64,000 bases of DNA, taken from contig JANJGN010000163.1 of assembly GCA_026770705.1 (NCBI GenBank), forward strand, positions 434,001-498,000. The letters run 5' to 3'. This stretch comes from Isurus oxyrinchus (lineage: Eukaryota). The notes beneath the pieces were generated by a model. That model worked only from the letters and a program-made list of their open reading frames with translations. It was not told the DNA's origin and made no database searches. Shown here one piece after another: positions 21,001 through 54,593 of this stretch. The position numbers were made by a program, and so were the translations under genes. The stretch's first letter is position 1; every line of letters starts with the position of its first letter.

Positions 21001-24000
21001 ATCTAATTAGATATCAAACTTGGGATGTCAACCTGGAATTGACAGTCTAATTAGATATCAGACTTGGGATGTCAACCTGGAATTGACAATCTAATTAGAT
21101 ATCAGACTTGGGATGTCAACCTGGAATTGACAATCTAATTAGATATCAGACTTGGGATGTCAACCTGGAATTGACAATCTAATTAGATATCAGACTTGGG
21201 ATGTCAACCTGGAATTGACAATCTAATTAGATATCAAACTTGGGATGTCAACCTGGAATTGACGATCTAATTAGATATCAGACTTGGGATGTCAACCTGG
21301 AATTGACAATCTAATTAGATATCACACTTGGGATGTCAACCTGGATTTGACAATCTAATTCGATATCAGACTTGGGATGTCAACCTGGAATTGACAATCT
21401 CATTAGATATCAGACTTGGGATGTCAACCTGGAATTGACAATCTAATTAGATATCAGACTTGGGATGTCACCCTGGAATTGACAATCTCATTAGATATCA
21501 GACTTGGGATGTCAACCTGGAATTGACAATCTAATTAGATATCAGACTTGGGATGTCAACTTGGAATTGACAATCTAATTAGATATCAAACTTGGGATGT
21601 CAACCTGGAATTGACAATCTAATTAGATATCAGACTTGGGATGTCAATCTGGAATTGACAATCTAATTAGATATCAGACTTGGGATGTCAACCTGGAATT
21701 GACAATCTAATTAGATATCAAACTTGGGATGTCAACCTGGAATTGACAATCTAATTAGATATCAGACTTGGGATGTCAACCTGGAATTTACAATCTAATT
21801 AGATATCAAACTTGGGATGTCAACCTAGAATTGACAATCTAATTAGATATCATACTTGGGATGTCAACCTGGAATTGACAATCTAATTAGATATGAAACT
21901 TGGGATGTCAACCTGGAATTGACAATATAATTAGATATCAGACTTGGGATGTCAACCTGGAATTGACAATCTAATTAGATATCAGACTTGGGATGTCAAC
22001 CTGGAATTGAGAATCTAATTAGATATCAGACTTGGGATGTCAACCTAGAATTGACAATCTAATTAGATAACAGACTTGGGATGTCAACCTGGAATTGACA
22101 ATCTAATTAGATATCACACTTGGGATGTCAACCTGGATTTGACAATCTAATTAGATATCAGACTTGGGATGTCAACCTGGAATTGACAATCTAATTAGAT
22201 ATCAGACTTGGGATGTCAACCTGGAATTGACAATCTCATTAGATATCACACTTGGGATATCAACCTGGAATTGAAAATCTAATTAGATATCAGACTTGGG
22301 ATGTCAACCTGGAATTGACAATCTAATTAGATATCAGACTTGGGATGTCAACCTGGAATTGACAATCTCATTAGATATCAAACTTGGGATGTCAACCTGG
22401 AATTGACGATCTAATTAGATATCAGACTTGGGATGTCAACCTGGAATTGACGATCTAATTAGATATCAGACTTGGGATGTCAACCTGGAATTGACAATCT
22501 AATTAGATGTCACACTTGGGATGTCAACCTGGATTTGACAATCTAATTAGATATCAGACTTGGGATGTCAACCTGGAATTGACAATCTAATTAGATATCA
22601 GATTTGGGATGTCAACCTGGAATTGACAATCTCATTAGATATCAGACTTGGGATGTCAACCTGGAATTGACAATCTAATTAGATATCACACTTGGGATGT
22701 CAACTTGGAATTGACAATCTAATTAGATATCAAACTTTGGATGTCAACCTGGAATTGACAATCTAATTAGATATCAGACTTGGGATGTCAATCTGGAATT
22801 GACAATCTAATTAGATATCAGACTTGGAGTGTCAACTTGGAATTGACAATCTAATTAGATATCACACTTGGGATGTCAACCTGGATTTGACAATCTAATT
22901 AGATATCAGACTTGGGATGTCAACCTGGAATTGACAATCTAATTAGATATCAAACTTGGGATGTCAACCTGGAATTGACAGTCTAATTAGATATCAGACT
23001 TGGGATGTCAACCTGGAATTGACAATCTAATTAGATATCAGACTTGGGATGTCAACCTGGAATTGACAATCTAATTAGATATCAGACTTGGGATGTCAAC
23101 CTGGAATTGACAATCTAATTAGATATCAGACTTGGGATGTCAACCTGGAATTGACAATCTAATTAGATATCAAACTTGGGATGTCAACCTGGAATTGACG
23201 ATCTAATTAGATATCAGACTTGGGATGTCAACCTGGAATTGACAATCTAATTAGATATCACACTTGGGATGTCAACCTGGATTTGACAATCTAATTCGAT
23301 ATCAGACTTGGGATGTCAACCTGGAATTGACAATCTCATTAGATATCAGACTTGGGATGTCAACCTGGAATTGACAATCTAATTAGATATCAGACTTGGG
23401 ATGTCACCCTGGAATTGACAATCTCATTAGATATCAGACTTGGGATGTCAACCTGGAATTGACAATCTAATTAGATATCAGACTTGGGATGTCAACTTGG
23501 AATTGACAATCTAATTAGATATCAAACTTGGGATGTCAACCTGGAATTGACAATCTAATTAGATATCAGACTTGGGATGTCAATCTGGAATTGACAATCT
23601 AATTAGATATCAGACTTGGGATGTCAACCTGGAATTGACAATCTAATTAGATATCAAACTTGGGATGTCAACCTGGAATTGACAATCTAATTAGATATCA
23701 GACTTGGGATGTCAACCTGGAATTTACAATCTAATTAGATATCAAACTTGGGATGTCAACCTAGAATTGACAATCTAATTAGATATCATACTTGGGATGT
23801 CAACCTGGAATTGACAATCTAATTAGATATGAAACTTGGGATGTCAACCTGGAATTGACAATATAATTAGATATCAGACTTGGGATGTCAACCTGGAATT
23901 GACAATCTAATTAGATATCAGACTTGGGATGTCAACCTGGAATTGAGAATCTAATTAGATATCAGTCTTGGGATGTCAACTTTGAATTGACAATCTAATT

Positions 24001-27000
24001 AGATATCAAACTTGGGATGTCAACCTGGAATTGACGATCTAATTAGATATCAGACTTGGGATGTCAACCTGGAATTGACAATCTAATTAGATATCACACT
24101 TGGGATGTCAACCTGGATTTGACAATCTAATTAGATATCAGACTTGGGATGTCAACCTGGAATTGACAATCTAATTAGATATCAGACTTGGGATGTCAAC
24201 CTGGAATTGACAATCTCATTAGATATCAGACTTGGGATGTCAACCTGGAATTGACAATCTAATTAGATATCAGACTTGGGATGTCAACTTGGAATTGACA
24301 ATCTAATTAGCTATCAAACTTGGGATGTCAACCTGGAATTGACAATCTAATTAGATATCAGACTTGGGATGTCAATCTGGAATTGACAATCTAATTAGAT
24401 ATCAGACTTGGAGTGTCAACTTGGAATTGACAATCTAATTAGATATCACACTTGGGATGTCAACCTGGATTTGACAATCTAATTAGATATCAGACTTGGG
24501 ATGTCAACCTGGAATTGTCAATCTCATTAGATATCAAACTTGGGATGTCAACCTGGAATTGACAATCTAATTAGATATCAGACTTGGGATGTCAACCTGG
24601 AATTGACAATCTAATTAGATATCAGACTTGGGATGTCAACCAGGAATTGACAATCTAATTAGATATCAGACTTGGGATGTCAACCTGGAATTGACAATCT
24701 AATTAGATATCAGACTTGGGATGTCAACCTGGAATTGACAATCTAATTAGATATCAAACTTGGGATGTCAACCTGGAATTGACGATCTAATTAGATATCA
24801 GACTTGGGATGTCAACCTGGAATTGACAATCTAATTAGATATCAGACTTGGGATGTCAACCTGGATTTGACAATCTAATTAGATATCAGACTTGGGATGT
24901 CAACCTGGAATTGACAATCTCATTAGATATCAGACTTGGGATGTCAACCTGGAATTGACAATCTCATTAGATATCAGACTTGGGATGTCAAGCTGGAATT
25001 GACAATCTAATTAGATATCAGACTTGGGATGTCAACTTGGAATTGACAATCTAATTAGATATCAAACTTGGGATGTCAACCTGGAATTGACAATCTAATT
25101 AGATATCAGACTTGGGATGTCAATCTGGAATTGACAATCTAATTAGATATCAAACTTGGGATGTCAACCTGGAATTGACAATCTAATTAGATATCAAACT
25201 TGGGATGTCAACTTGGAATTGACAATCTAATTAGATATCAAACTTGGGCTGTCAACCTGGAATTGACAATCTAATTAGATATCAAACTTGGGATGTCAAC
25301 CTGGAATTAACAATCTAATTAGATATCAGACTTGGGATGTCAACCTGGAATTGACAATCTAATTAGATATCAAAATTGGGATGTCAACCTAGAATTGACA
25401 ATCTAATTAGATATCAGACTTGGGATGTCAACCTGGAATTGACAATCTAATTAGATATCAGACTTGGGATATCAACCTGGAACTGACAATCTAATTAGAT
25501 ATCAGACTTGGGATGTCAACCTGGAATTGACAATCTAATTAGATATCAGACTTGGGATGTCAACCTGGAATTGACAATCTCATTAGATATCAGACTTGGG
25601 ATGTCAACCTGGAATTGACAATCTAATTAGATATCAGACTTGGGATGTCAACCTGGAATTGACAATCTAATTAGATATCAGACTTGGGATGTCAACTTGG
25701 AATTGACAATCTAATTAGATATCAGACTTGGCATGTCAACCTGGAATTGACAATCTAATTAGAAATCAGACTTGGGATGTCAACTTGGAATTGACAATCT
25801 AATTAGATATCAGACTTGGGATGTCAACCTGGAATTGACAATCTAATTAGATATCAGACTTGGGATGTCAACTTGGAATTGACAATCTAATTAGATATCA
25901 GACTTGGGATGTCAACCTGGAATTGACAATCTAATTAGATATCAGACTTGGGATGTCAACTTGGAATTGACAATCTAATTAGATATCACACTTGGGATGT
26001 CAACCTGGATTTGACAATCTAATTAGATATCAGACTTGGGATGTCAACTTGGAATTGACAATCTAATTAGATATCAGACTTGGGATGTCAACCTGGAATT
26101 GACAATCTAATTAGAAATCAGACTTGGGATGTCGACTTGGAATTGACAATCTAATTAGATATCAGACTTGGGATGTCAATCTGGAATTGACAATCTAATT
26201 AGATATCAGACTTGGGATGTCAACCTGCTATTGACAATCTAATTAGATATCAGACTTGGGATGTCAAGTTGGAATTGACAATCTAATTAGATATCAAACT
26301 TGGGATGTCAACCTGGAATTGACAATCTAATTAGATATCAAAATTGGGATGTCAACTTGGAATTGACAATCTAATTAGATATCAGACTTGGGATGTCAAC
26401 CTGGAATTGACAATCTAATTAGATATCAAACTTGGGATGTCAACCTGGAATTGACAATCTAATTAGATATCAGACTTGGGATGTCAACCTGGAATTGACA
26501 ATCTAATTAGATATCAGACTTGGGATGTCAACCTGGAATTGACAATCTAATTAGATATCAAACTTGGGATGTCAACCTAGAATTGACAATCTAATTAGAT
26601 ATCAGACTTGGGATGTCAACCTAGAATTGACAATCTAATTAGATAACAGACTTGGGATGTCAACCTGGAATTGACAATCTAATTAGATATCACACTTGGG
26701 ATGTCAACCTGGATTTGACAATCTAATTAGATATCAGACTTGGGATGTCAACCTGGAATTGACAATCTAATTAGATATCAGACTTGGGATGTCAACCTGG
26801 AATTGACAATCTCATTAGATATCAGACTTGGGATGTCAACCTGGAATTGACAATCTAATTAGATATCAGACTTGGGATGTCAACCTGGAATTGACAATCT
26901 AATTAGATATCAGACTTGGGATGTCAACCTGGAATTGACAATCTAATTAGATATCAGACTTGGGATGTCAACCTGGAATTGACAATCTAATTAGATATCA

Positions 27001-30000
27001 GACTTGGGATGTCAACCTGGAATTGACAATCTAATTAGATATCAAACTTGGGATGTCAACCTGGAATTGACGATCTAATTAGATATCAGACTTGGGATGT
27101 CAACCTGGAATTGACAATCTAATTAGATGTCACACTTGGGATGTCAACCTGGATTTGACAATCTAATTAGATATCAGACTTGGGATGTCAACCTGGAATT
27201 GACAATCTAATTAGATATCAGATTTGGGATGTCAACCTGGAATTGACAATCTCATTAGATATCAGACTTGGGATGTCAACCTGGAATTGACAATCTAATT
27301 AGATATCACACTTGGGATGTCAACTTGGAATTGACAATCTAATTAGATATCAAACTTTGGATGTCAACCTGGAATTGACAATCTAATTAGATATCAGACT
27401 TGGGATGTCAATCTGGAATTGACAATCTAATTAGATATCAGACTTGGAGTGTCAACTTGGAATTGACAATCTAATTAGATATCACACTTGGGATGTCAAC
27501 CTGGATTTGACAATCTAATTAGATATCAGACTTGGGATGTCAACCTGGAATTGACAATCTAATTAGATATCAAACTTGGGATGTCAACCTGGAATTGACA
27601 GTCTAATTAGATATCAGACTTGGGATGTCAACCTGGAATTGACAATCTAATTAGATATCAGACTTGGGATGTCAACCTGGAATTGACAATCTAATTAGAT
27701 ATCAGACTTGGGATGTCAACCTGGAATTGACAATCTAATTAGATATCAGACTTGGGATGTCAACCTGGAATTGACAATCTAATTAGATATCAAACTTGGG
27801 ATGTCAACCTGGAATTGACGATCTAATTAGATATCAGACTTGGGATGTCAACCTGGAATTGACAATCTAATTAGATATCACACTTGGGATGTCAACCTGG
27901 ATTTGACAATCTAATTCGATATCAGACTTGGGATGTCAACCTGGAATTGACAATCTCATTAGATATCAGACTTGGGATGTCAACCTGGAATTGACAATCT
28001 AATTAGATATCAGACTTGGGATGTCACCCTGGAATTGACAATCTCATTAGATATCAGACTTGGGATGTCAACCTGGAATTGACAATCTAATTAGATATCA
28101 GACTTGGGATGTCAACTTGGAATTGACAATCTAATTAGATATCAAACTTGGGATGTCAACCTGGAATTGACAATCTAATTAGATATCAGACTTGGGATGT
28201 CAATCTGGAATTGACAATCTAATTAGATATCAGACTTGGGATGTCAACCTGGAATTGACAATCTAATTAGATATCAAACTTGGGATGTCAACCTGGAATT
28301 GACAATCTAATTAGATATCAGACTTGGGATGTCAACCTGGAATTTACAATCTAATTAGATATCAAACTTGGGATGTCAACCTAGAATTGACAATCTAATT
28401 AGATATCATACTTGGGATGTCAACCTGGAATTGACAATCTAATTAGATATGAAACTTGGGATGTCAACCTGGAATTGACAATATAATTAGATATCAGACT
28501 TGGGATGTCAACCTGGAATTGACAATCTAATTAGATATCAGACTTGGGATGTCAACCAGGAATTGAGAATCTAATTAGATATCAGTCTTGGGATGTCAAC
28601 TTTGAATTGACAATCTAATTAGATATCAAACTTGGGATGTCAACTTGGAATTGACGATCTAATTAGATATCAGACTTGGGATGTCAACCTGGAATTGACA
28701 ATCTAATTAGATATCACACTTGGGATGTCAACCTGGATTTGACAATCTAATTAGATATCAGACTTGGGATGTCAACCTGGAATTGACAATCTAATTAGAT
28801 ATCAGACTTGGGATGTCAACCTGGAATTGACAATCTCATTAGATATCAGACTTGGGATGTCAACCTGGAATTGACAATCTAATTAGATATCAGACTTGGG
28901 ATGTCAACTTGGAATTGACAATCTAATTAGCTATCAAACTTGGGATGTCAACCTGGAATTGACAATCTAATTAGATATCAGACTTGGGATGTCAATCTGG
29001 AATTGACAATCTAATTAGATATCAGACTTGGAGTGTCAACTTGGAATTGACAATCTAATTAGATATCACACTTGGGATGTCAACCTGGATTTGACAATCT
29101 AATTAGATATCAGACTTGGGATGTCAACCTGGAATTGACAATCTCATTAGATATCAAACTTGGGATGTCAACCTGGAATTGACAATCTAATTAGATATCA
29201 GACTTGGGATGTCAACCTGGAATTGACAATCTAATTAGATATCAGACTTGGGATGTCAACCAGGAATTGACAATCTAATTAGATATCAGACTTGGGATGT
29301 CAACCTGGAATTGACAATCTAATTAGATATCAGACTTGGGATGTCAACCTGGAATTGACAATCTAATTAGATATCAAACTTGGGATGTCAACCTGGAATT
29401 GACGATCTAATTAGATATCAGACTTGGGATGTCAACCTGGAATTGACAATCTAATTAGATATCAGACTTGGGATGTCAACCTGGATTTGACAATCTAATT
29501 AGATATCAGACTTGGGATGTCAACCTGGAATTGACAATCTCATTAGATATCAGACTTGGGATGTCAACCTGGAATTGACAATCTCATTAGATATCAGACT
29601 TGGGATGTCAACCTGGAATTGACAATCTAATTAGATATCAGACTTGGGATGTCAACTTGGAATTGACAATCTAATTAGATATCAAACTTGGGATGTCAAC
29701 CTGGAATTGACAATCTAATTAGATATCAGACTTGGGATGTCAATCTGGAATTGACAATCTAATTAGATATCAAACTTGGGATGTCAACCTGGAATTGACA
29801 ATCTAATTAGATATCAAACTTGGGATGTCAACTTGGAATTGACAATCTAATTAGATATCAGACTTGGGATGTCAACCTGGAATTGACAATCTAATTAGAT
29901 ATCAAAATTGGGATGTCAACCTAGAATTGACATTCTAATTAGATATCAGACTTGGGATGTCAACCTGGAATTGACAATCTAATTAGACATCACACTTGGG

Positions 30001-33000
30001 ATATCAACCTGGAATTGAAAATCTAATTAGATATCAGACTTGGGATGTCAACCTGGAATTGACAATCTAATTAGATATCAGACTTGGGATGTCAACCTGG
30101 AATTGACAATCTCATTAGATATCAGACTTGGGATGTCAACCTGGAATTGACAATCTAATTAGATATCAAACTTGGGATGTCAACCTGGAATTGACAATCT
30201 AATTAGATATCAGACTTGGGATGTCAACCTGGAATTGACAATCTAATTAGATATCACACTTGGGATGTCAACCTGGATTTGACAATCTAATTAGATATCA
30301 GACTTGGGATGTCAACCTGGAATTGACAATCTAATTAGATATCAGACTTGGGATGTCAACCTGGAATTGACAATCTCATTAGATATCAGACTTGGGATGT
30401 CAACCTGGAATTGACAATCTAATTAGATATCAGACTTGGGATGTCAACTTGGAATTGACAATCTAATTAGATATCAAACTTGGGATGTCAACCTGGAATT
30501 GACAATCTAATTAGATATCAGACTTGGGATGTCAATCTGGAATTGACAATCTAATTAGATATCAGACTTGGGGTGTCAACTTGGAATTGACAATCTAATT
30601 AGATATCAAACTTGGGATGTCAACCTGGAATTGACAATCTAATTCGATATCAAACTTGGGATGTCAACTTGGAATTGACAATCTAATTAGATATCAAACT
30701 TGGGATGTCAACCTTGAATTGACAATCTAATTAGATATCAAACTTGGGATGTCAACCTGGAATTGACAATCTAATTAGATATCAGACTTGGGATGTCAAT
30801 CTGGAATTGACAATCTAATTAGATATCAAAATTGGGATGTCAACCTAGAATTGACAATCTAATTAGATATCAGACTTGGGATGTCAACCTGGAATTGACA
30901 ATCTAATTAGATATCACTCTTGGGATATCAACCTGGAATTGACAATCTAATTAGATATCAGACTTGGGATGTCAACCTGGAATTGACAATCTAATTAGAT
31001 ATCAGACTTGGGATCTCAACCTGGAATTGACAATCTAATTAGAAATCAGACTTGGGATGTCAACTTGGAATTGACAATCTAATTAGATATCACTCCTGGG
31101 ATGTCAACCTGGATTTGACAATCTAATTAGATATCAGACTTGGGATGTCAACTTGGAATTGACAATCTAATTAGATATCAGACTTGGGATGTCAACCTGG
31201 AATTGACAATCTAATTAGAAATCAGACTTGGGATGTCGACTTGGAATTGACAATCGAATTAGATATCAGACTTGGGATGTCAATCTGGAATTGACAATCT
31301 AATTAGATATCAGACTTGGGATGTCAACCAGCTATTGACAATCTAATTAGATATCAGACTTGGGATGTCAACTTGGAATTGACAATCTAATTAGATATCA
31401 AACTTGGGATGTCAACCTGGAATTGACAATCTAATTAGATATCAAACTTGGGATGTCAACTTGGAATTGACAATCTAATTAGATATCAGACTTGGGATGT
31501 CAACCTGGAATTGACAATCTAATTAGATATCAAAATTGGGATGTCAACCTAGAATTGACAATCTAATTAGATATCAGACTTGGGATGTCAACCTGGAATT
31601 GACAATCTAATTAGATATCACACTTGGGATATCAACCTGGAATTGACAATCTAATTAGATATCAGACTTGGGATTTCAACCTGGAATTGACAATCTAATT
31701 AGATATCAGACTTGGGATGTCAACCTGGAATTGACAATCTCATTAGATATCAGACTTGGGATGTCAACCTGGAATTGACAATCTAATTAGATATCAGACT
31801 TGGGATGTCAACCTGGAATTGACAATCTAATTAGATATCAGACTTGGGATGTCAACTTGGAATTGACAATCTAATTAGATATCAGACTTGGCATGTCAAC
31901 CTGGAATTGACAATCTAATTAGAAGTCAGACTTGGGATGTCAACTTGGAATTGACAATCTCATTAGATATCAGACTTGGGATGTCAACCTGGAATTGACA
32001 ATCTAATTAGATATCAGACTTGGGATGTCAACTTGGAAGTGACAATCTAATTAGATACCAGACTTGGGATGTCAACCTGGAATTGACAATCTAATTAGAT
32101 ATCAGACTTGGGATGTCAACTTGGAATTGACAATCTAATTAGATATCACACTTGGGATGTCAACCTGGATTTGACAATCTAATTAGATATCAGACTTGGG
32201 ATGTCAACCTGGAATTGACAATCTAATTAGATATCAGACTTGGGATGTCAACCTGGAATTGACAATCTAATTAGATATCAGAATTGGGATGTCAACCTGG
32301 AATTGACAATCTAATTAGAAATCAGACTTGGGATGTCGACTTGGAATTGACAATCTAATTAGATATCAGACTTGGGATGTCAATCTGGAATTGACAATCT
32401 AATTAGATATCAGACTTGGGATGTCAACCTGCTATTGAAAATCTAATTAGATATCAGACTTGGGATGTCAACTTGGAATTGACAATCTAATTAGATATCA
32501 AACTTGGGATGTCAACCTGGAATTGACAATCTAATTAGATATCAAACTTGGGATGTCAACTTGGAATTGACAATCTAATTAGATATCAGACTTGGGATGT
32601 CAACCTAGAATTGACAATCTAATTAGATATCACACTTGGGATGTCAACCTGGATTTGACAATCTAATTAGATATCAGACTTGGGATGTCAACTTGGAATT
32701 GACAATCTAATTAGATATCACACTTGGGATGTCAACCTGGATTTGACAATCTAATTAGATATCAGACTTGGGATGTCAACCTGGAATTGACAATCTAATT
32801 AGATATCAAACTTGGGATGTCAACCTGGAATTGACAATCTAATTAAATATCAGACTTGGGATGTTAACCTGGAATTGACAATATAATTAGATATCACACT
32901 TGGGATGTCAACCTGGATTTGACAATCTAATTAGATATCAGACTTGGGATGTCAACCTGGAATTGACAATCTAATTAGATATCAGACTTGGGATGTCAAC

Positions 33001-36000
33001 CTGGAATTGACAATCTCATTAGATATCAGACTTGGGATGTCAACCTGGAATTGACAATCTAATTAGATATCAGACTTGGGATGTCAACTTGGAATTGACA
33101 ATCTAATTAGATATCAAACTTGGGATGTCAACCTGGAAATGACAATCTAATTAGATATCAGACTTGGGATGTCAATCTGGAATTGACAATCTAATTAGAT
33201 ATCAGACTTGGGGTGTCAACTTGGAATTGACAATCTAATTAGATATCAAACTTGGGATGTCAACCTGGAATTGACAATCTAATTAGATATCAAACTTGGG
33301 ATGTCAACTTGGAATTGACAATCTAATTAGATATCAAACTTGGGCTGTCAACCTGGAATTGACAATCTAATTAGATATCAAACTTGGGATGTCAACCTGG
33401 AATTGACAATCTAATTAGATATCAGACTTGGGATGTCAACCTGGAATTGACAATCTAATTAGATATCAAAATTGGGATGTCAACCTAGAATTGACAATCT
33501 AATTAGATATCAGACTTGGGATGTCAACCTGGAATTGACAATCTAATTAGATATCAGACTTGGGATATCAACCTGGAATTGACAATCTAATTAGATATCA
33601 GACTTGGGATGTCAACCTGGAATTGACAATCTAATTAGATATCAGACTTGGGATGTCAACCTAGAATTGACAATCTCATTAGATATCAGACTTGGGATGT
33701 CAACCTGGAATTGACAATCTAATTAGATATCAGACTTGGGATGTCAACCTGGAATTGACAATCTAATTAGATATCAGACTTGGGATGTCAACTTGGAATT
33801 GACAATCTAATTAGATATCAGACTTGGCATGTCAACCTGGAATTGACAATCTAATTAGAAATCAGACTTGGGATGTCAACTTGGAATTGACAATCTAATT
33901 AGATATCAGACTTGGGATGTCAACCTGGAATTGACAATCTAATTAGATATCAGACTTGGGATGTCAACTTGGAATTGACAATCTAATTAGATATCAGACT
34001 TGGGATGTCAACCTGGAATTGACAATCTAATTAGATATCAGACTTGGGATGTCAACTTGGAATTGACAATCTAATTAGATATCACACTTGGGATGTCAAC
34101 CTGGATTTGACAATCTAATTAGATATCAGACTTGGGATGTCAACTTGGAATTGACAATCTAATTAGATATCAGACTTGGGATGTCAACCTGGAATTGACA
34201 ATCTAATTAGAAATCAGACTTGGGATGTCGACTTGGAATTGACAATCTAATTAGATATCAGACTTGGGATGTCAATCTGGAATTGACAATCTAATTAGAT
34301 ATCAGACTTGGGATGTCAACCTGCTATTGACAATCTAATTAGATATCAGACTTGGGATGTCAAGTTGGAATTGACAATCTAATTAGATATCAAACTTGGG
34401 ATGTCAACCTGGAATTGACAATCTAATTAGATATCAAAATTGGGATGTCAACTTGGAATTGACAATCTAATTAGATATCAGACTTGGGATGTCAACCTGG
34501 AATTGACAATCTAATTAGATATCAAACTTGGGATGTCAACCTGGAATTGACAATCTAATTAGACATCAGACTTGGGATGTCAACCTGGAATTGACAATCT
34601 AATTAGATATCAGACTTGGGATGTCAACCGGGAATTGACAATCTAATTAGATATCAAACTTGGGATGTCAACCTAGAATTGACAATCTAATTAGATATCA
34701 GACTTGGGATGTCAATCTAGAATTGACAATCTAATTAGATAACAGACTTGGGATGTCAACCTGGAATTGACAATCTAATTAGATATCACACTTGGGATGT
34801 CAACCTGGATTTGACAATCTAATTAGATATCAGACTTGGGATGTCAACCTGGAATTGACAATCTAATTAGATATCAGACTTGGGATGTCAACCTGGAATT
34901 GACAATCTCATTAGATATCAGACTTGGGATGTCAACCTGGAATTGACAATCTAATTAGATATCAGACTTGGGATGTCAACCTGGAATTGACAATCTAATT
35001 AGATATCAGACTTGGGATGTCAACCTGGAATTGACAATCTAATTAGATATCAGACTTGGGATGTCAACCTGGAATTGACAATCTAATTAGATATCAGACT
35101 TGGGATGTCAACCTGGAATTGACAATCTAATTAGATATCAAACTTGGGATGTCAACCTGGAATTGACGATCTAATTAGATAACAGACTTGGGATGTCAAC
35201 CTGGAATTGACAATCTAATTAGATGTCACACTTGGGATGTCAACCTGGATTTGACAATCTAATTAGATATCAGACTTGGGATGTCAACCTGGAATTGACA
35301 ATCTAATTAGATATCAAAATTGGGATGTCAACCTAGAATTGACAATCTAATTAGATATCAGACTTGGGATGTCAACCTGGAATTGACAATCTAATTAGAT
35401 ATCACTCTTGGGATATCAACCTGGAATTGACAATCTAATTAGATATCAGACTTGGGATGTCAACCTGGAATTGACAATCTAATTAGATATCAGACTTGGG
35501 ATCTCAACCTGGAATTGACAATCTAATTAGAAATCAGACTTGGGATGTCAACTTGGAATTGACAATCTAATTAGATATCAGACTTGGGATGTCAATGTGG
35601 AATTGACAATCTAATTAGATATCAGACTTGGGATGTCAACTTGGAATTGACAATCTAATTAGATATCAGACTTGGGATGTCAACCTGGAATTGACAATCT
35701 AATTAGATATCAGACTTGGGATGTCAACTTGGAATTGACAAACTAATTAGATATCACTCCTGGGATGTCAACCTGGATTTGACAATCTAATTAGATATCA
35801 GACTTGGGATGTCAACTTGGAATTGACAATCTAATTAGATATCAGACTTGGGATGTCAACCTGGAATTGACAATCTAATTAGAAATCAGACTTGGGATGT
35901 CGACTTGGAATTGACAATCGAATTAGATATCAGACTTGGGATGTCAATCTGGAATTGACAATCTAATTAGATATCAGACTTGGGATGTCAACCAGCTATT

Positions 36001-39000
36001 GACAATCTAATTAGATATCAGACTTGGGATGTCAACTTGGAATTGACAATCTAATTAGATATCAAACTTGGGATGTCAACCTGGAATTGACAATCTAATT
36101 AGATATCAAACTTGGGATGTCAACTTGGAATTGACAATCTAATTAGATATCAGACTTGGGATGTCAACCTGGAATTGACAATCTAATTAGATATCAAAAT
36201 TGGGATGTCAACCTAGAATTGACAATCTAATTAGATATCAGACTTGGGATGTCAACCTGGAATTGACAATCTAATTAGATATCAGACTTGGGATGTCAAC
36301 CTGGAATTGACAATCTAATTAGATATCAGAATTGGGATGTCAACCTGGAATTGACAATCTAATTAGAAATCAGACTTGGGATGTCGACTTGGAATTGACA
36401 ATCTAATTAGATATCAGACTTGGGATGTCAATCTGGAATTGACAATCTAATTAGATATCAGACTTGGGATGTCAACCTGCTATTGAAAATCTAATTAGAT
36501 ATCAGACTTGGGATGTCAACTTGGAATTGACAATCTAATTAGATATCAAACTTGGGATGTCAACCTGGAATTGACAATCTAATTAGATATCAAACTTGGG
36601 ATGTCAACTTGGAATTGACAATCTAATTAGATATCAGACTTGGGATGTCAACCTAGAATTGACAATCTAATTAGATATCACACTTGGGATGTCAACCTGG
36701 ATTTGACAATCTAATTAGATATCAGACTTGGGATGTCAACTTGGAATTGACAATCTAATTAGATATCACACTTGGGATGTCAACCTGGATTTGACAATCT
36801 AATTAGATATCAGACTTGGGATGTCAACCTGGAATTGACAATCTAATTAGATATCAAACTTGGGATGTCAACCTGGAATTGACAATCTAATTAAATATCA
36901 GACTTGGGATGTTAACCTGGAATTGACAATATAATTAGATATCACACTTGGGATGTCAACCTGGATTTGACAATCTAATTAGATATCAGACTTGGGATGT
37001 CAACCTGGAATTGACAATCTAATTAGATATCAGACTTGGGATGTCAACCTGGAATTGACAATCTCATTAGATATCAGACTTGGGATGTCAACCTGGAATT
37101 GACAATCTAATTAGATATCAGACTTGGGATGTCAACTTGGAATTGACAATCTAATTAGATATCAAACTTGGGATGTCAACCTGGAAATGACAATCTAATT
37201 AGATATCAGACTTGGGATGTCAATCTGGAATTGACAATCTAATTAGATATCAGACTTGGGGTGTCAACTTGGAATTGACAATCTAATTAGATATCAAACT
37301 TGGGATGTCAACCTGGAATTGACAATCTAATTAGATATCAAACTTGGGATGTCAACTTGGAATTGACAATCTAATTAGATATCAAACTTGGGCTGTCAAC
37401 CTGGAATTGACAATCTAATTAGATATCAAACTTGGGATGTCAACCTGGAATTGACAATCTAATTAGATATCAGACTTGGGATGTCAACCTGGAATTGACA
37501 ATCTAATTAGATATCAAAATTGGGATGTCAACCTAGAATTGACAATCTAATTAGATATCAGACTTGGGATGTCAACCTGGAATTGACAATCTAATTAGAT
37601 ATCAGACTTGGGATATCAACCTGGAATTGACAATCTAATTAGATATCAGACTTGGGATGTCAACCTGGAATTGACAATCTAATTAGATATCAGACTTGGG
37701 ATGTCAACCTAGAATTGACAATCTCATTAGATATCAGACTTGGGATGTCAACCTGGAATTGACAATCTAATTAGATATCAGACTTGGGATGTCAACCTGG
37801 AATTGACAATCTAATTAGATATCAGACTTGGGATGTCAACTTGGAATTGACAATCTAATTAGATATCAGACTTGGCATGTCAACCTGGAATTGACAATCT
37901 AATTAGAAATCAGACTTGGGATGTCAACTTGGAATTGACAATCTAATTAGATATCAGACTTGGGATGTCAACCTGGAATTGACAATCTAATTAGATATCA
38001 GACTTGGGATGTCAACTTGGAATTGACAATCTAATTAGATATCAGACTTGGGATGTCAACCTGGAATTGACAATCTAATTAGATATCAGACTTGGGATGT
38101 CAACTTGGAATTGACAATCTAATTAGATATCACACTTGGGATGTCAACCTGGATTTGACAATCTAATTAGATATCAGACTTGGGATGTCAACTTGGAATT
38201 GACAATCTAATTAGATATCAGACTTGGGATGTCAACCTGGAATTGACAATCTAATTAGAAATCAGACTTGGGATGTCGACTTGGAATTGACAATCTAATT
38301 AGATATCAGACTTGGGATGTCAATCTGGAATTGACAATCTAATTAGATATCAGACTTGGGATGTCAACCTGCTATTGACAATCTAATTAGATATCAGACT
38401 TGGGATGTCAAGTTGGAATTGACAATCTAATTAGATATCAAACTTGGGATGTCAACCTGGAATTGACAATCTAATTAGATATCAAAATTGGGATGTCAAC
38501 TTGGAATTGACAATCTAATTAGATATCAGACTTGGGATGTCAACCTGGAATTGACAATCTAATTAGATATCAAACTTGGGATGTCAACCTGGAATTGACA
38601 ATCTAATTAGACATCAGACTTGGGATGTCAACCTGGAATTGACAATCTAATTAGATATCAGACTTGGGATGTCAACCGGGAATTGACAATCTAATTAGAT
38701 ATCAAACTTGGGATGTCAACCTAGAATTGACAATCTAATTAGATATCAGACTTGGGATGTCAATCTAGAATTGACAATCTAATTAGATAACAGACTTGGG
38801 ATGTCAACCTGGAATTGACAATCTAATTAGATATCACACTTGGGATGTCAACCTGGATTTGACAATCTAATTAGATATCAGACTTGGGATGTCAACCTGG
38901 AATTGACAATCTAATTAGATATCAGACTTGGGATGTCAACCTGGAATTGACAATCTCATTAGATATCAGACTTGGGATGTCAACCTGGAATTGACAATCT

Positions 39001-42000
39001 AATTAGATATCAGACTTGGGATGTCAACCTGGAATTGACAATCTAATTAGATATCAGACTTGGGATGTCAACCTGGAATTGACAATCTAATTAGATATCA
39101 GACTTGGGATGTCAACCTGGAATTGACAATCTAATTAGATATCAGACTTGGGATGTCAACCTGGAATTGACAATCTAATTAGATATCAAACTTGGGATGT
39201 CAACCTGGAATTGACGATCTAATTAGATAACAGACTTGGGATGTCAACCTGGAATTGACAATCTAATTAGATGTCACACTTGGGATGTCAACCTGGATTT
39301 GACAATCTAATTAGATATCAGACTTGGGATGTCAACCTGGAATTGACAATCTAATTAGATATCAAAATTGGGATGTCAACCTAGAATTGACAATCTAATT
39401 AGATATCAGACTTGGGATGTCAACCTGGAATTGACAATCTAATTAGATATCACTCTTGGGATATCAACCTGGAATTGACAATCTAATTAGATATCAGACT
39501 TGGGATGTCAACCTGGAATTGACAATCTAATTAGATATCAGACTTGGGATCTCAACCTGGAATTGACAATCTAATTAGAAATCAGACTTGGGATGTCAAC
39601 TTGGAATTGACAATCTAATTAGATATCAGACTTGGGATGTCAATGTGGAATTGACAATCTAATTAGATATCAGACTTGGGATGTCAACTTGGAATTGACA
39701 ATCTAATTAGATATCAGACTTGGGATGTCAACCTGGAATTGACAATCTAATTAGATATCAGACTTGGGATGTCAACTTGGAATTGACAAACTAATTAGAT
39801 ATCACTCCTGGGATGTCAACCTGGATTTGACAATCTAATTAGATATCAGACTTGGGATGTCAACTTGGAATTGACAATCTAATTAGATATCAGACTTGGG
39901 ATGTCAACCTGGAATTGACAATCTAATTAGAAATCAGACTTGGGATGTCGACTTGGAATTGACAATCGAATTAGATATCAGACTTGGGATGTCAATCTGG
40001 AATTGACAATCTAATTAGATATCAGACTTGGGATGTCAACCAGCTATTGACAATCTAATTAGATATCAGACTTGGGATGTCAACTTGGAATTGACAATCT
40101 AATTAGATATCAAACTTGGGATGTCAACCTGGAATTGACAATCTAATTAGATATCAAACTTGGGATGTCAACTTGGAATTGACAATCTAATTAGATATCA
40201 GACTTGGGATGTCAACCTGGAATTGACAATCTAATTAGATATCAAAATTGGGATGTCAACCTAGAATTGACAATCTAATTAGATATCAGACTTGGGATGT
40301 CAACCTGGAATTGACAATCTAATTAGATATCACACTTGGGATATCAACCTGGAATTGACAATCTAATTAGATATCAGACTTGGGATTTCAACCTGGAATT
40401 GACAATCTAATTAGATATCAGACTTGGGATGTCAACCTGGAATTGACAATCTCATTAGATATCAGACTTGGGATGTCAACCTGGAATTGACAATCTAATT
40501 AGATATCAGACTTGGGATGTCAACCTGGAATTGACAATCTAATTAGATATCAGACTTGGGATGTCAACTTGGAATTGACAATCTAATTAGATATCAGACT
40601 TGGCATGTCAACCTGGAATTGACAATCTAATTAGAAGTCAGACTTGGGATGTCAACTTGGAATTGACAATCTCATTAGATATCAGACTTGGGATGTCAAC
40701 CTGGAATTGACAATCTAATTAGATATCAGACTTGGGATGTCAACTTGGAAGTGACAATCTAATTAGATATCAGACTTGGGATGTCAACCTGGAATTGACA
40801 ATCTTATTAGATATCAGACTTGGGATGTCAACTTGGAATTGACAATCTAATTAGATATCACACTTGGGATGTCAACCTGGATTTGACAATCTAATTAGAT
40901 ATCAGACTTGGGATGTCAACCTGGAATTGACAATCTAATTAGATATCAGACTTGGGATGTCAACCTGGAATTGACAATCTAATTAGATATCAGAATTGGG
41001 ATGTCAACCTGGAATTGACAATCTAATTAGAAATCAGACTTGGGATGTCGACTTGGAATTGACAATCTAATTAGATATCAGACTTGGGATGTCAATCTGG
41101 AATTGACAATCTAATTAGATATCAGACTTGGGATGTCAACCTGCTATTGAAAATCTAATTAGATATCAGACTTGGGATGTCAACTTGGAATTGACAATCT
41201 AATTAGATATCAAACTTGGGATGTCAACCTGGAATTGACAATCTAATTAGATATCAAACTTGGGATGTCAACTTGGAATTGACAATCTAATTAGATATCA
41301 GACTTGGGATGTCAACCTAGAATTGACAATCTAATTAGATATCACACTTGGGATGTCAACCTGGATTTGACAATCTAATTAGATATCAGACTTGGGATGT
41401 CAACTTGGAATTGACAATCTAATTAGATATCACACTTGGGATGTCAACCTGGATTTGACAATCTAATTAGATATCAGACTTAGGATGTCAACCTGGAATT
41501 GACAATCTAATTAGATATCAAACTTGGGATGTCAACCTGGAATTGACAATCTAATTAAATATCAGACTTGGGATGTTAACCTGGAATTGACAATATAATT
41601 AGATATCACACTTGGGATGTCAACCTGGATTTGACAATCTAATTAGATATCAGACTTGGGATGTCAACCTGGAATTGACAATCTAATTAGATATCAGACT
41701 TGGGATGTCAACCTGGAATTGACAATCTCATTAGATATCAGACTTGGGATGTCAACCTGGAATTGACAATCTAATTAGATATCAGACTTGGGATGTCAAC
41801 TTGGAATTGACAATCTAATTAGATATCAAACTTGGGATGTCAACCTGGAAATGACAATCTAATTAGATATCAGACTTGGGATGTCAATCTGGAATTGACA
41901 ATCTAATTAGATATCAGACTTGGGGTGTCAACTTGGAATTGACAATCTAATTAGATATCAAACTTGGGATGTCAACCTGGAATTGACAATCTAATTAGAT

Positions 42001-45000
42001 ATCAAACTTGGGATGTCAACTTGGAATTGACAATCTAATTAGATATCAAACTTGGGCTGTCAACCTGGAATTGACAATCTAATTAGATATCAAACTTGGG
42101 ATGTCAACCTGGAATTGACAATCTAATTAGATATCAGACTTGGGATGTCAACCTGGAATTGACAATCTAATTAGATATCAAAATTGGGATGTCAACCTAG
42201 AATTGACAATCTAATTAGATATCAGACTTGGGATGTCAACCTGGAATTGACAATCTAATTAGATATCAGACTTGGGATATCAACCTGGAATTGACAATCT
42301 AATTAGATATCAGACTTGGGATGTCAACCTGGAATTGACAATCTAATTAGATATCAGACTTGGGATGTCAACCTGGAATTGACAATCTCATTAGATATCA
42401 GACTTGGGATGTCAACCTGGAATTGACAATCTAATTAGATATCAGACTTGGGATGTCAACCTGGAATTGACAATCTAATTAGATATCAGACTTGGGATGT
42501 CAACTTGGAATTGACAATCTAATTAGATATCAGACTTGGCATGTCAACCTGGAATTGACAATCTAATTAGAAATCAGACTTGGGATGTCAACTTGGAATT
42601 GACAATCTAATTAGATATCAGACTTGGGATGTCAACCTGGAATTGACAATCTAATTAGATATCAGACTTGGGATGTCAACTTGGAATTGACAATCTAATT
42701 AGATATCAGACTTGGGATGTCAACCTGGAATTGACAATCTAATTAGATATCAGACTTGGGATGTCAACTTGGAATTGACAATCTAATTAGATATCACACT
42801 TGGGATGTCAACCTGGATTTGACAATCTAATTAGATATCAGACTTGGGATGTCAACTTGGAATTGACAATCTAATTAGATATCAGACTTGGGATGTCAAC
42901 CTGGAATTGACAATCTAATTAGAAATCAGACTTGGGATGTCGACTTGGAATTGACAATCTAATTAGATATCAGACTTGGGATGTCAATCTGGAATTGACA
43001 ATCTAATTAGATATCAGACTTGGGATGTCAACCTGCTATTGACAATCTAATTAGATATCAGACTTGGGATGTCAAGTTGGAATTGACAATCTAATTAGAT
43101 ATCAAACTTGGGATGTCAACCTGGAATTGACAATCTAATTAGATATCAAAATTGGGATGTCAACTTGGAATTGACAATCTAATTAGATATCAGACTTGGG
43201 ATGTCAACCTGGAATTGACAATCTAATTAGATATCAAACTTGGGATGTCAACCTGGAATTGACAATCTAATTAGATATCAGACTTGGGATGTCAACCTGG
43301 AATTGACAATCTAATTAGATATCAGACTTGGGATGTCAAGCTGGAATTGACAATCTAATTAGATATCAAACTTGGGATGTCAACCTAGAATTGACAATCT
43401 AATTAGATATCAGACTTGGGATGTCAACCTAGAATTGACAATCTAATTAGATAACAGACTTGGGATGTCAACCTGGAATTGACAATCTAATTAGATAACA
43501 CACTTGGGATGTCAACCTGGATTTGACAATCTAATTAGATATCAGACTTGGGATGTCAACCTGGAATTGACAATCTAATTAGATATCAGACTTGGGATGT
43601 CAACCTGGAATTGACAATCTCATTAGATATCAGACTTGGGATGTCAACCTGGAATTGACAATCTAATTAGATATCAGACTTGGGATGTCAACCTGGAATT
43701 GACAATCTAATTAGATATCAGACTTGGGATGTCAACCTGGAATTGACAATCTAATTAGATATCAGACTTGGGATGTCAACCTGGAATTGACAATCTAATT
43801 AGATATCAGACTTGGGATGTCAACCTGGAATTGACAATCTAATTAGATATCAAACTTGGGATGTCAACCTGGAATTGACGATCTAATTAGATATCAGACT
43901 TGGGATGTCAACCTGGAATTGACAATCTAATTAGATGTCACACTTGGGATGTCAACCTGGATTTGACAATCTAATTAGATATCAGACTTGGGATGTCAAC
44001 CTGGAATTGACAATCTAATTAGATATCAGATTTGGGATGTCAACCTGGAATTGACAATCTCATTAGATATCAGACTTGGGATGTCAACCTGGAATTGACA
44101 ATCTAATTAGATATCACACTTGGGATGTCAACTTGGAATTGACAATCTAATTAGATATCAAACTTTGGATGTCAACCTGGAATTGACAATCAAATTAGAT
44201 ATCAGACTTGGGATGTCAATCTGGAATTGACAATCTAATTAGATATCAGACTTGGAGTGTCAACTTGGAATTGACAATCTAATTAGATATCACACTTGGG
44301 ATGTCAACCTGGATTTGACAATCTAATTAGATATCAGACTTGGGATGTCAACCTGGAATTGACAATCTAATTAGATATCAAACTTGGGATGTCAACCTGG
44401 AATTGACAGTCTAATTAGATATCAGACTTGGGATGTCAACCTGGAATTGACAATCTAATTAGATATCAGACTTGGGATGTCAACCTGGAATTGACAATCT
44501 AATTAGATATCAGACTTGGGATGTCAACCTGGAATTGACAATCTAATTAGATATCAGACTTGGGATGTCAACCTGGAATTGACAATCTAATTAGATATCA
44601 AACTTGGGATGTCAACCTGGAATTGACGATCTAATTAGATATCAGACTTGGGATGTCAACCTGGAATTGACAATCTAATTAGATATCACACTTGGGATGT
44701 CAACCTGGATTTGACAATCTAATTCGATATCAGACTTGGGATGTCAACCTGGAATTGACAATCTCATTAGATATCAGACTTGGGATGTCAACCTGGAATT
44801 GACAATCTAATTAGATATCAGACTTGGGATGTCACCCTGGAATTGACAATCTCATTAGATATCAGACTTGGGATGTCAACCTGGAATTGACAATCTAATT
44901 AGATATCAGACTTGGGATGTCAACTTGGAATTGACAATCTAATTAGATATCAAACTTGGGATGTCAACCTGGAATTGACAATCTAATTAGATATCAGACT

Positions 45001-47450
45001 TGGGATGTCAATCTGGAATTGACAATCTAATTAGATATCAGACTTGGGATGTCAACCTGGAATTGACAATCTAATTAGATATCAAACTTGGGATGTCAAC
45101 CTGGAATTGACAATCTAATTAGATATCAGACTTGGGATGTCAACCTGGAATTTACAATCTAATTAGATATCAAACTTGGGATGTCAACCTAGAATTGACA
45201 ATCTAATTAGATATCATACTTGGGATGTCAACCTGGAATTGACAATCTAATTAGATATGAAACTTGGGATGTCAACCTGGAATTGACAATCTAATTAGAT
45301 ATCAGACTTGGGATGTCAACCTGGAATTGACAATCTAATTAGATATCAGACTTGGGATGTCAACCTGGAATTGAGAATCTAATTAGATATCAGTCTTGGG
45401 ATGTCAACTTTGAATTGACAATCTAATTAGATATCAAACTTGGGATGTCAACCTGGAATTGACGATCTAATTAGATATCAGACTTGGGATGTCAACCTGG
45501 AATTGACAATCTAATTAGATATCACACTTGGGATGTCAACCTGGATTTGACAATCTAATTAGATATCAGACTTGGGATGTCAACCTGGAATTGACAATCT
45601 AATTAGATATCAGACTTGGGATGTCAACCTGGAATTGACAATCTCATTAGATATCAGACTTGGGATGTCAACCTGGAATTGACAATCTAATTAGATATCA
45701 GACTTGGGATGTCAACTTGGAATTGACAATCTAATTAGCTATCAAACTTGGGATGTCAACCTGGAATTGACAATCTAATTAGATATCAGACTTGGGATGT
45801 CAATCTGGAATTGACAATCTAATTAGATATCAGACTTGGAGTGTCAACTTGGAATTGACAATCTAATTAGATATCACACTTGGGATGTCAACCTGGATTT
45901 GACAATCTAATTAGATATCAGACTTGGGATGTCAACCTGGAATTGACAATCTCATTAGATATCAAACTTGGGATGTCAACCTGGAATTGACAATCTAATT
46001 AGATATCAGACTTGGGATGTCAACCTGGAATTGACAATCTAATTAGATATCAGACTTGGGATGTCAACCAGGAATTGACAATCTAATTAGATATCAGACT
46101 TGGGATGTCAACCTGGAATTGACAATCTAATTAGATATCAGACTTGGGATGTCAACCTGGAATTGACAATCTAATTAGATATCAAACTTGGGATGTCAAC
46201 CTGGAATTGACAATCTAATTAGATATCAAACTTGGGATGTCAACCTGGAATTGACGATCTAATTAGATATCAGACTTGGGATGTCAACCTGGAATTGACA
46301 ATCTAATTAGATATCAGACTTGGGATGTCAACCTGGATTTGACAATCTAATTAGATATCAGACTTGGGATGTCAACCTGGAATTGACAATCTCATTAGAT
46401 ATCAGACTTGGGATGTCAACCTGGAATTGACAATCTCATTAGATATCAGACTTGGGATGTCAACCTGGAATTGACAATCTAATTAGATATCAGACTTGGG
46501 ATGTCAACTTGGAATTGACAATCTAATTAGATATCAAACTTGGGATGTCAACCTGGAATTGACAATCTAATTAGATATCAGACTTGGGATGTCAATCTGG
46601 AATTGACAATCTAATTAGATATCAGACTTGGGGTGTCAACTTGGAATTGACAATCTAATTAGATATCAAACTTGGGATGTCAACCTGGAATTGACAATCT
46701 AATTACATATCAAACTTGGGATGTCAACTTGGAATTGACAATCTAAGTAGATATCAGACTTGGGATGTCAACCTGGAATTGACAATCTAATTAGATATCA
46801 AACTTGGGATGTCAACCTGGAATTGACAATCTAATTAGATATCAGACTTGGGATGTCAACCTGGAATTGACAATCTAGTTAGATATCAAACTTGGGATGT
46901 CAACCTAGAATTGACAATCTAATTAGATATCAGACTTGGGATGTCAACCTGGAATTGACAATCTAATTAGATATCAAACTTGGGATGTCAACCTGGAATT
47001 GACAATCTAATTAGATATCAGACTTGGGATGTCAACCTGGAATTGACAATCTAATTAGATATCAGACTTGGGATGTCAACCTGGAATTGAGAATCTAATT
47101 AGATATCAGTCTTGGGATGTCAACTTTGAATTGACAATCTAATTAGATATCAAACTTGGGATGTCAACCTGGAATTGACGATCTAATTAGATATCAGACT
47201 TGGGATGTCAACCTGGAATTGACAATCTAATTAGATATCAGACTTGGGATGTCAACCTGGAATTGACAATCTAATTAGATATCAGACTTGGGATGTCAAC
47301 CTGGAATTGACAATCTAATTAGATATCAGACTTGGGATGTCAACCTGTAATTGACAATCTAATTAGATATCAGACTTGGGATGTCAACTTGGAATTGACA
47401 ATCTAATTAGATATCACACTTGGGATGTCAACCTGGAATTGACAATCTAA
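1..47450. repeat. 44-bp satellite DNA array (1078 monomers + 18 bp; open at the left window edge)
   Basis: Monomer CTGGAATTGACAATCTAATTAGATATCAGACTTGGGATGTCAAC repeats from position 1. Phase recurs every 660 bp (15 units) through 46861. The last monomer starts at 47433 = 1+44x1078 and breaks off after ...GACAATCTAA at 47450. Only substitutions were seen, and the ORF track has no ORFs here. Confidence 0.99.
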
Positions 47451-47679
47451 CGATGACTATGAATCCAATATCGATTGTCGTAAAACCCCATCTGCCTCAC
47501 CAATGTCCCTTGAGGGAGGGAAATCTGCTGTCCTTACCCCGGTCTGGCCTACATGTGACTCCAGACCCACAGCAATGTGGTTAACTGTTAGAAATGCTCT
47601 CTGAACAAGGGCGGTTATGGATGGGTAAGAAATGCTGGCCTAGCCAGTGACGCCCACATCCCATCAATGAATAGGAAAA
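47433..47679 (+). mobile_element. 3' body and tail of a chondrichthyan SINE-like interspersed repeat (5' head absent, replaced by the satellite)
   Basis: CGATTGTCGTAAAACCCCATCTG...GGAAATCTGCTGTCCTTACC...GGTCTGGCCTACATGTGACTCCAGACCCACAGCAATGTGG...AAATGCTGGCCTAGCCAGTGACGCCCACATCCCATCAATGAATAGGAAAAG resembles an abundant shark SINE as I recall it and ends in an A-rich tail. The family assignment is not database-verified. Confidence 0.65.
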
Positions 47680-47689
47680 GGATTACTCA

Positions 47690-48230
47690 CTGGCCACGCC
47701 TGCATCTGCTGTTCATTCCTGGTCGCCACTGGGGAGGGCGGGCTCAGGTTCCGCTTCTAGGTGGTAGGGACCGTGCGATTCGCAAGTGTGACTGAAGGAG
47801 CCTTGGTGGATTGTTTCTATGCATCTTGTATATTGTAGTGACTGTGTCCGTGTGTTGAATGTTGAAGGCGGCGGGTGCACTCACCATCCTGTTGGTCCGC
47901 TTTATCCTTCATTGCGCAGAGCTCCTGGAGAATAATTGGGATCTGCACTTATCGGTGCAAATGGAGTGTGAGCCATCACAGTGATGCCTTTTGTCTTGTA
48001 GTTGGAGGACAGGCTTTTTGAGTGCAGAATCCCCAGGCCCTGACCTGCTCCTGTAGCAGCAGCATTTACACGGATAGGCCAGTCCAGTTTCTGGTGAACG
48101 GTAACCCCTAGGGCGTTAGTGGCAGGGTTTAACTGATGTTCCTGTTGTTGAATATCTAGGTGCAATGGTTAGATTCTGTCTGTTGCAGACCATGGCCCAT
48201 TGCCTGGGACATGTGTGTGCATGTGTCACC
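47690..48230 (-). mobile_element. Decayed LINE (L2/CR1-clade) fragment, C-terminal RT region
   Basis: Minus-strand ORF 47902-48165 contains NALGVTVHQKLDWPIRVNAAATGAGQGLGIL...SLSSNYKT, a degenerate form of the LGVxxDxxLxWxxHI...LxxxYK motif that follows the RT domain of L2/CR1-group LINEs. Boundaries are approximate. Confidence 0.7.
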
Positions 48231-48616: not shown

Positions 48617-48917
48617 ACACTTGCAGGAGCGCCTCCTTACCCAGTGGGGGGTCCGGCTGTCTGTTGTACAGGGGCAGACGGCGGAGATGCACTGTTACCA
48701 GAACGACACTGAGCATATCAACATGTCCTGGTACTGTCAGCACCCCGGGGCAGGGCTGCAGCTCATGGTCACCTCGGTGGGTACCTCAGAGCCCAGGCCT
48801 GAAGAGGGGTTCAAGGAGAGGTTTGAAGTGACGAGACACAACACCAAGTGGTGCAGCCTGAAAATACTGAGCGTGGAGCTGACTGACACTGCGGTTTATT
48901 ACTGCGCTGCTGGTGAA
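48617..48917 (+). pseudogene. TRBV: TCR beta-type V exon V1, frameshifted, no recognisable leader
   Basis: A polypyrimidine acceptor ...TTCCTCCTCAG ends at 48616. The phase-1 reading gives DTCRSA and then shifts frame (GCCTCCTTACC is one base short relative to the paralogs). The downstream frame has the V hallmarks C-YQND, WYCQ..GLQLM, RF, SLKI and DTAVYYCAAGE. No hydrophobic leader exon was found upstream. Confidence 0.85.
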
Positions 48918-48956
48918 CACAGAGACTCAAACAGGTGTAGATCTTGTTCAAAAACA
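48918..48956 (+). other. Recombination signal sequence (23-RSS) of V1
   Basis: CACAGAG (48918-48924) + 23 bp + TCAAAAACA (48948-48956); consensus is CACAGTG-23-ACAAAAACC. Confidence 0.92.
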
Positions 48957-49060
48957 TCCCCACTCTGTTCTACTGGGAGCTAAAACCTCTGTAAACTCCA
49001 GTAAGTGGTGGTGCTGCAACCACCTGGATATTGGTGACGATCTATGTGGTTTTTACTGCA

Positions 49061-49341: not shown

Positions 49342-49638
49342 ACTCGGACATGAAATCAGGAGCCAGTCCTGATAGGGCTGTGAGCTGGTCAGCTCCAAAT
49401 CTCCATGAAGAATCCATCATTAACCGCTCTCTCTCCTTTACCAAATTACCTCATTGTGAAATGGTAAAATCCAGCTGGCCAATCAAAAATAATATTAACA
49501 AATCCAACCAGAATAATAATCACCTTCCAAATGAGATATAAGCTGGCGCGTTAACACTTCAAATAAGAAGCGCAAGTCCTTTCGGGGAGGTTTGTGTGAA
49601 GCAAATCTTCATACACAGGCTGGAGGGAAACTAGCAAA

Positions 49639-52140: not shown

Positions 52141-52214
52141 CTTTTCTACTCCCCCGATGCTGGCAGTTTTTTGTTTTTATCTGTGATTAATTGACTGCCC
52201 CTGCTCTTCCAGAA

Positions 52215-54532: not shown

Positions 54533-54593
54533 CTCCAGTCTGTGAAAGCGGGCGGAGCTGCGAGTTTGAGAGAGCGTGTGAAAGTCCCGCATC

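Follow-up and report, generated by a model that had tools for sequence, protein, structure and literature searches.

The window analysed here, a 64,000-nucleotide stretch of a shark assembly (G000:C163:434,001-498,000), contains the right-hand part of a large tandem array, the 5'-truncated SINE into which the array reads, the remnant of an older LINE and four V exons resembling those of TCR-beta, the beta chain of the T-cell receptor. Features are given in window coordinates:

1..47450, plus strand: right 47.5 kb of the 44-bp monomer array, detected by TRF with ends mapped
47402..47411, no strand: 10-bp palindrome on a monomer-to-monomer joint, holding 2 bases that are absent from both array ends
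47409..47432, plus strand: non-SINE 24 bp of the last monomer; at the left array end the same 24 bp adjoin unique flank
47414..47428, minus strand: 15-bp stretch similar to an older antisense LINE at its 3' tip (12/15 in the first monomer of the array)
47426..47444, no strand: inverted repeat with a 6-bp stem and 7-nt loop across the SINE 5' junction, from sequence and folding
47433..47450, plus strand: SINE-derived 18 bp of the monomer, departing from the SINE consensus at 47441, 47443 and 47445
47451..47679, plus strand: body and A-rich tail of the 5'-truncated SINE, 199 of 225 aligned bases as in the consensus (88%)
47687..48100, minus strand: old, diverged antisense LINE remnant that begins right after the SINE tail; 65-73% to the majority of the dispersed copies and 42/66 to the end of the element, of which another copy has the RT-like frame described below
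48633..48917, plus strand: TCR-beta-like V exon with an open frame and, behind it, a heptamer, a 23-bp spacer and a nonamer-like motif; the leftmost of the window's four
55241-55523, 57136-57423 and 63747-64000: three further TCR-beta-like V exons whose frames are open; of all four, the three complete exons are followed by a heptamer and a 23-bp spacer, and their nonamers are non-canonical

The V exons of the locus match solved TCR beta chains and bear motifs like recombination signals with a 23-bp spacer. The exon at 57136-57423, a close paralog of that at 48633..48917, gave a V-set match and aligns at 59% to a sawshark protein labelled TCR beta chain-like. Scoring the best 150 of 853 candidates gave at least 57 relatives of one V on the unplaced scaffolds C163, C1134 and C1481; more distant V relatives sit on the 25-Mb C31, 0.86-1.6 Mb from its start. 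A C1-set search detected no TCR-beta constant exon on C163 or C31 among the best 150 of 973 candidates. Window segments 48622-55494 and 57127-64000 form a tandem duplication with an 8.5-kb period, 99.4% identical over 6.9 kb, whose block contains V exons and a retroelement. The retroelement (49894-53344, and again from 58400) has an RT-like frame and a GIY-YIG-like motif, is broken by stops and is a partial tandem with a repeated 173-bp piece; by its features it is probably Penelope-like. Elsewhere, V exons at G000:C163:322,634 and 513,088 and at C1134:9,248 and 49,099 are cut at the same residue (83 of 96) and continue into the same unrelated sequence, a shared break copied along with the cassettes. 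A local duplication of 2.5 kb involves the upstream V gene at G000:C163:796,631-799,392, where one copy has a stop and the break falls between the C-rich tract and the 22-bp tandem array described below.

End mapping showed that the complete 44-bp array measures 104,454 bp and 2,374 units (G000:C163:376,997-481,450), its left end lying in non-SINE DNA 57 kb beyond the left edge of the window. Not one of the 2,374 blocks is out of frame, and the mean distance from the monomer consensus is 2.7%. Monomer position 1 opens the array and position 42 closes it, leaving its two ends 2 bp apart in phase. Its right end thus stops 2 bp short of a complete unit, at the centre of a 10-bp palindrome that is present at every internal monomer joint. 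A reading made from the sequence alone had described an array that ends mid-monomer and mid-palindrome with no spacer or decayed zone, and the letters of 47433-47679 read as it claimed. That reading had also proposed, by comparison with a common shark SINE, that the first 18 bp of the monomer are themselves SINE sequence. The proposal held: 47433-47450 match the SINE consensus at 15/18 positions, ungapped and in register, placing the start of SINE homology before 47451, already within the array. Only 3 of 20,000 shuffled monomers, taken in any phase or strand, reached 15/18 at the junction register, and 9 of 1,000 did so anywhere in the SINE. Among 22 dispersed SINE copies, 21 match the 18-mer at 11-16 of 18 positions and the remaining one is truncated there. 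A genome-wide search with a 25-bp junction pattern (at most one mismatch) returned 19 matches, comprising eight array sites and 11 unrelated SINE copies; the latter place the 18-mer within the variation of the SINE family. The satellite-to-SINE junction is confirmed as real. Of the three positions at which the 18-mer departs from the SINE consensus, two provide stem pairs of the junction-spanning hairpin at 47426..47444, whose fold is weak overall (17/200 and 6/200 shuffles fold equally well on the two strands). Strong hairpin folding of a monomer dimer was likewise rejected, the folding being only weak (z of -1.7 and -2.25).

The 229-bp element at 47451..47679 belongs to a high-copy dispersed repeat (4,185 first-look candidates, the best 40 of which were scored), and its consensus was built from the 22 dispersed copies in the same genome. 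Its tail shares 74 of 76 positions with the 3' terminus of a LINE-like repeat; in one copy of that repeat, a frame shows 81% identity to a protein with an RT domain (PF00078). By copy number, size and LINE-shared tail, the element is a SINE. As for a tRNA-derived head, box A- and B-like motifs can be seen by eye in full-length copies, and Rfam tRNA hits at E<=1 were obtained in 0/5 loci. The family may be HE1, a V-SINE of sharks and rays. Independent 5'-truncated copies break near the same A-rich linker (L012, L021, L026; L093-L096). The L093-L096 group (one copy on C121, two on C150, one on C557) represents near-identical copies of another 5'-truncated insertion, from a longer subfamily, inside a segmental duplication on unplaced scaffolds. 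These four near-matches to the junction were rejected as array sites, being an unrelated 5'-truncated SINE copy that carries no array.

The sequence-only reading placed the array inside a SINE copy, between the two halves of a full-length element, and predicted that the 5' head would sit at the far left end. No head is present at C163:376,997 or at any of the nine paralogous left ends (9/9), and ~700 bp of left flank gave no meaningful BLAST match to the consensus. No shared target-site duplication was found either; comparing 30 bp immediately ahead of the 18-mer with 43 bp at the SINE tail gave a longest common word of 4 bp. The predicted placement is supported on neither count, and the unit instead straddles the 5' junction of a truncated SINE, because 24 of its 26 non-SINE bases are found at the left end directly ahead of the first 18-mer. 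The suggested make-up of 18 bp of SINE plus 26 bp of other sequence is therefore right for the 18 bp, and the rest is not detectably sense-strand SINE, but the 26 bp divide into 24 bp from the left side and 2 bp at the joint; the SINE share of the monomer is 41%.

As to the source of the 24 bp, 15 of them (47414..47428) resemble the 3' tip of the older antisense LINE whose remnant lies just behind the SINE tail. The match is short and its test post hoc: it was equalled by 117/20,000 shuffles and 214/14,654 locus 30-mers, or by 60/20,000 shuffles and 133/24,424 locus 30-mers when limited by register. The piece lies near the register expected had the SINE split that LINE. Pfam gave no match for two LINE fragments, and comparison of the left flank with the flanks of the old LINE gave no signal of continuation in 7/7 copies. 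These similarities suggest that the 24 bp may be the SINE's target site, the tip of the old LINE, a reading limited by the fact that the 15 letters can equally be read as the SINE's own tail reversed.

The same structure recurs at nine paralogous TCR-beta V cassettes. The junction from left flank to first monomer is identical at all nine, and the right junction with the SINE is identical at 8/8 complete sites, the ninth array running off its contig. At eight of the nine a V exon was mapped ~760-1,000 bp upstream, with further V exons downstream. The sites hold 10, 11, 20, at least 18, 49, 64, 94, 1,991 and 2,374 units, and each of the eight complete arrays measures n x 44 - 2 bp. No out-of-frame block occurs in any of the nine arrays; one consensus is common to all, from which they differ by 1.1-2.9%. 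No monomer was found in the assembly outside these sites, a search that unassembled arrays would escape. Allowing two mismatches, the 24-bp part has 4,570 matches genome-wide (4,531 forward and 39 reverse), which equals exactly the number within the nine arrays (4,531 on C163 and 39 on C1134 and C1481). Since all 4,570 matches fall in these arrays, the satellite was likely born here, as the sequence-only reading had supposed, though not inside a complete SINE. A left-flank search of the shark's own genome yielded no empty or single-unit site (9/9 candidates hold an array); nor did a right-flank search, in which the best 40 of 1,559 candidates were scored and the eight close matches were all array sites, or inspection of three more distant V relatives. 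The ancestral state is thus reconstructed rather than seen in the assembly.

Flank comparisons revealed how the arrays may have grown. Right-flank divergence is 0.9-1.9% among seven sites, 5-6% for one outlier site and 0.2% between the two giant arrays of 1,991 and 2,374 units. The giants are sisters (100/99 support) and join the 10- and 20-unit sites (98/98) in a left-flank tree whose alignment includes low-complexity DNA. Their first 40 monomers are exactly alike, and they are collinear over 1,789 of 1,991 units, differing by whole-unit blocks of 5 to ~240 units. Each also holds near-perfect tandem block duplications of 87-153 units. In this comparison, the pattern fits one expansion followed by block gains and losses and would be consistent with unequal exchange, which is part of established satellite models. 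Measured by flank divergence, the rise above 2,000 units is placed between ~1.4% and 0.2%. A 22-bp tandem array lies on the upstream side of the same V gene (G000:C163:368,298-375,502, L037/L036) and at paralogs, with 137, 146, 153, 171, 328, 328 and >558 copies at seven sites and 54 and >445 at a site with a doubled V; it was not detected at the 10-unit site. A SINE origin of the 22-bp array was rejected (765/2,000 shuffles). Because this non-SINE array also varies, from 54 to >558 copies, the V cassette seems permissive to tandem expansion in general.

Six sequencing runs, of 24 listed, were compared under the coded species labels A, also that of the assembly, and B, a second species; the flanks of the two are 6-10% diverged. 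In two organism B runs, contigs continue from left-flank sequence into the monomer, with 16-17 differences over ~201 bases; they extend 30 bases beyond the junction, where the bridging rule asks 31. Two organism B runs contain 44-bp back-joints. Organism B contigs of the right flank show 11-13 differences of 136, and none among the contigs listed bridges the right junction. The tandem unit likely predates the split between the two species, and its presence in organism B makes a short array likely older than that split. In one other organism A individual, two runs of raw reads at 0.38-fold each gave ~62 and ~42 array reads, counts that may omit reads lost to filtering, against 547 expected from the assembly. 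The implied copy numbers are ~525 and ~360, against 4,631 in the assembly. The few flank reads from organism A carry short-array alleles (3/3 at two left-flank sites and 1/1 at the sole giant-specific site). These reads suggest that the giant alleles may be polymorphic between individuals. The depth of Logan contigs was set aside as a quantitative measure of copy number, as overlapping contigs are summed.

Taken together, the monomer spans the boundary at which a 5'-truncated SINE begins within a TCR-beta V cassette, and we consider it probable that the satellite arose there by one small tandem duplication and was amplified by unequal exchange. In the proposed course of events, the SINE would have inserted, 5'-truncated, into the tip of the older antisense LINE; the head is missing, and the 24 bp are not sense-strand SINE. 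The first duplication may have been made by fold-back (snap-back) repair, which we infer from the two new bases, as with them the joint becomes the centre of a 10-bp palindrome, an argument that rests on those 2 bases; the monomer make-up and the n x 44 - 2 lengths are direct observations. A short array was likely in place before the second species split off, given that species' tandem unit. The cassette, with V gene, array and SINE, was copied to nine sites, which now carry 10-94 units except for two sisters near 2,000. Unequal crossing-over or gene conversion could then have driven the jump to ~100 kb, leaving the observed block duplications and whole-unit block differences. The satellite is most likely neutral or nearly neutral DNA.

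Other origins can be envisaged for the unit. The array could have arisen within a full-length SINE whose head was later deleted or decayed past recognition. A weak 40-bp anchored similarity to the SINE upstream of the 18-mer, equalled by 1/400 shuffles, would fit such a history; yet 39/400 random genomic segments score as well, the score is 10 as against 37-84 in the 18 of 22 SINE copies that retain that part, and the alignment rests partly on a base present in only 4/9 paralogs. Moreover, the 24 bp before the first 18-mer contain no SINE head by anchored alignment, being no better than shuffles (141/400 score as well), and a head would have vanished from ~700 bp of flank beside a body that is 88% intact, so we regard this history as very unlikely. 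Somewhat less improbable, but still unlikely, is that the 24 bp are filler made at SINE insertion, for example from an inverted piece of the SINE tail plus templated bases, in which case the monomer would be almost wholly SINE-derived. The tail whose reverse complement the 15-bp match could equally be is itself nearly identical to the LINE end, and the hairpin spans the SINE 5' junction, both as filler would have it; the antisense LINE remnant, however, resumes behind the SINE tail near the register where the 15-bp piece ends and offers a simpler source. That a satellite already present elsewhere invaded the site, recombining with a SINE that happened to resemble it at 15/18 positions, is very unlikely. 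A chance match somewhere in the SINE is rare yet possible at the 9/1,000 noted above, and assemblies can miss satellite arrays, but the monomer is absent outside the nine sites, and array ends 2 bp apart in phase and identical across sites are what an in-place duplication is expected to leave.

A separate doubt concerns size and not origin. The two giants may equally be two alleles of one site stacked by the assembler, and some block duplications could be assembly errors; that one or both of these account for the giants is a possibility we take seriously while judging it on balance unlikely. The scaffold is unplaced, the giants' flanks share 98.8% identity across 29.7 kb and differ by 0.2% immediately beside the array, the block duplications include almost exact ones (152 units at lag 153), and the array reads of the other individual fall far below the number expected. 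On the other side, the collinear order of 156 and 152 monomer types, together with the substitutions that separate the arrays, would be hard to fabricate, and one sample per species has monomer word depth in the tens of thousands against ~20-120 for the flank. Under duplication at the SINE junction, our preferred origin, a bolder and rather doubtful extension is that the entire life history of a satellite is kept in one locus, from one SINE-junction duplication through copies of the V cassette to a ladder of 10 to ~2,400 units. The 100-kb state would then be a recent, individually polymorphic jump that stretches the TCR-beta V cluster by ~190 kb and alters V-segment spacing and usage between individuals.

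Satellite growth from a single duplication is usually inferred from end states. Here common flanks link the birth junction with seven short and two giant sister arrays, so growth can be placed on a tree and the transition from minisatellite to satellite becomes testable at one site. The locus also shows that bases counted as 'unknown' in a SINE-derived unit can originate at the insertion junction. If the giant alleles segregate, the length of a shark T-cell-receptor locus varies by 100-200 kb between individuals.

A search of the literature, covering titles and abstract openings with subscription papers mostly outside its scope, found no shark SINE-derived satellite and no satellite arrays in a shark TCR locus; shark satellites mentioned in the accessible part of PMC11406177 are Y-linked only. 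HE1 is named in PMC4824008 as a shark V-SINE, and the SINE described here, tentatively assigned to it, resembles it in being a very abundant shark SINE with a Pol III box-like head and a LINE-shared tail. Human and mouse Alu- and B1-derived minisatellites, as listed in part of PMC9659126, are similar in that a VNTR arises at a SINE copy and expands in place; the listed ones derive from within the SINE or its tail, and that part describes no 100-kb array or paralog size series. The closest parallel is with the squamate reptile SINE-derived satellites sSat1-3, which, as described in PMC10702118, consist of tandem units that include a portion of a tRNA-SINE; one terminal unit continues to the end of the SINE. 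Some sSat units hold 14-44 nt of unknown origin, and unit numbers vary between orthologous loci, with single loci of 320 to >1,200 units. The shark satellite likewise has SINE-bearing tandem units with extra bases, a terminal unit that runs on to the SINE end at 8/8 complete sites, and at least four homogeneous head-to-tail middle units. It differs in that reptile units are ~70-290 nt and mostly SINE, whereas the shark unit is 44 bp with 18 bp of SINE, and in that the abundant reptile families occupy up to thousands of loci, often subtelomeric (PMC10702118), whereas the shark satellite is confined to nine paralogous antigen-receptor cassettes. This confinement also sets it apart from classical dispersed or centromeric satellites, which occur at several unlinked loci. 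Unlike the reptile sSat of PMC10702118, the shark satellite has an extra part traced to an insertion junction, reaches up to 2,374 units in the assembly and resides in a cartilaginous fish. Thus, the satellite is a variant of the known SINE-derived satellites, unusual in its paralog size series and its immune-locus setting.
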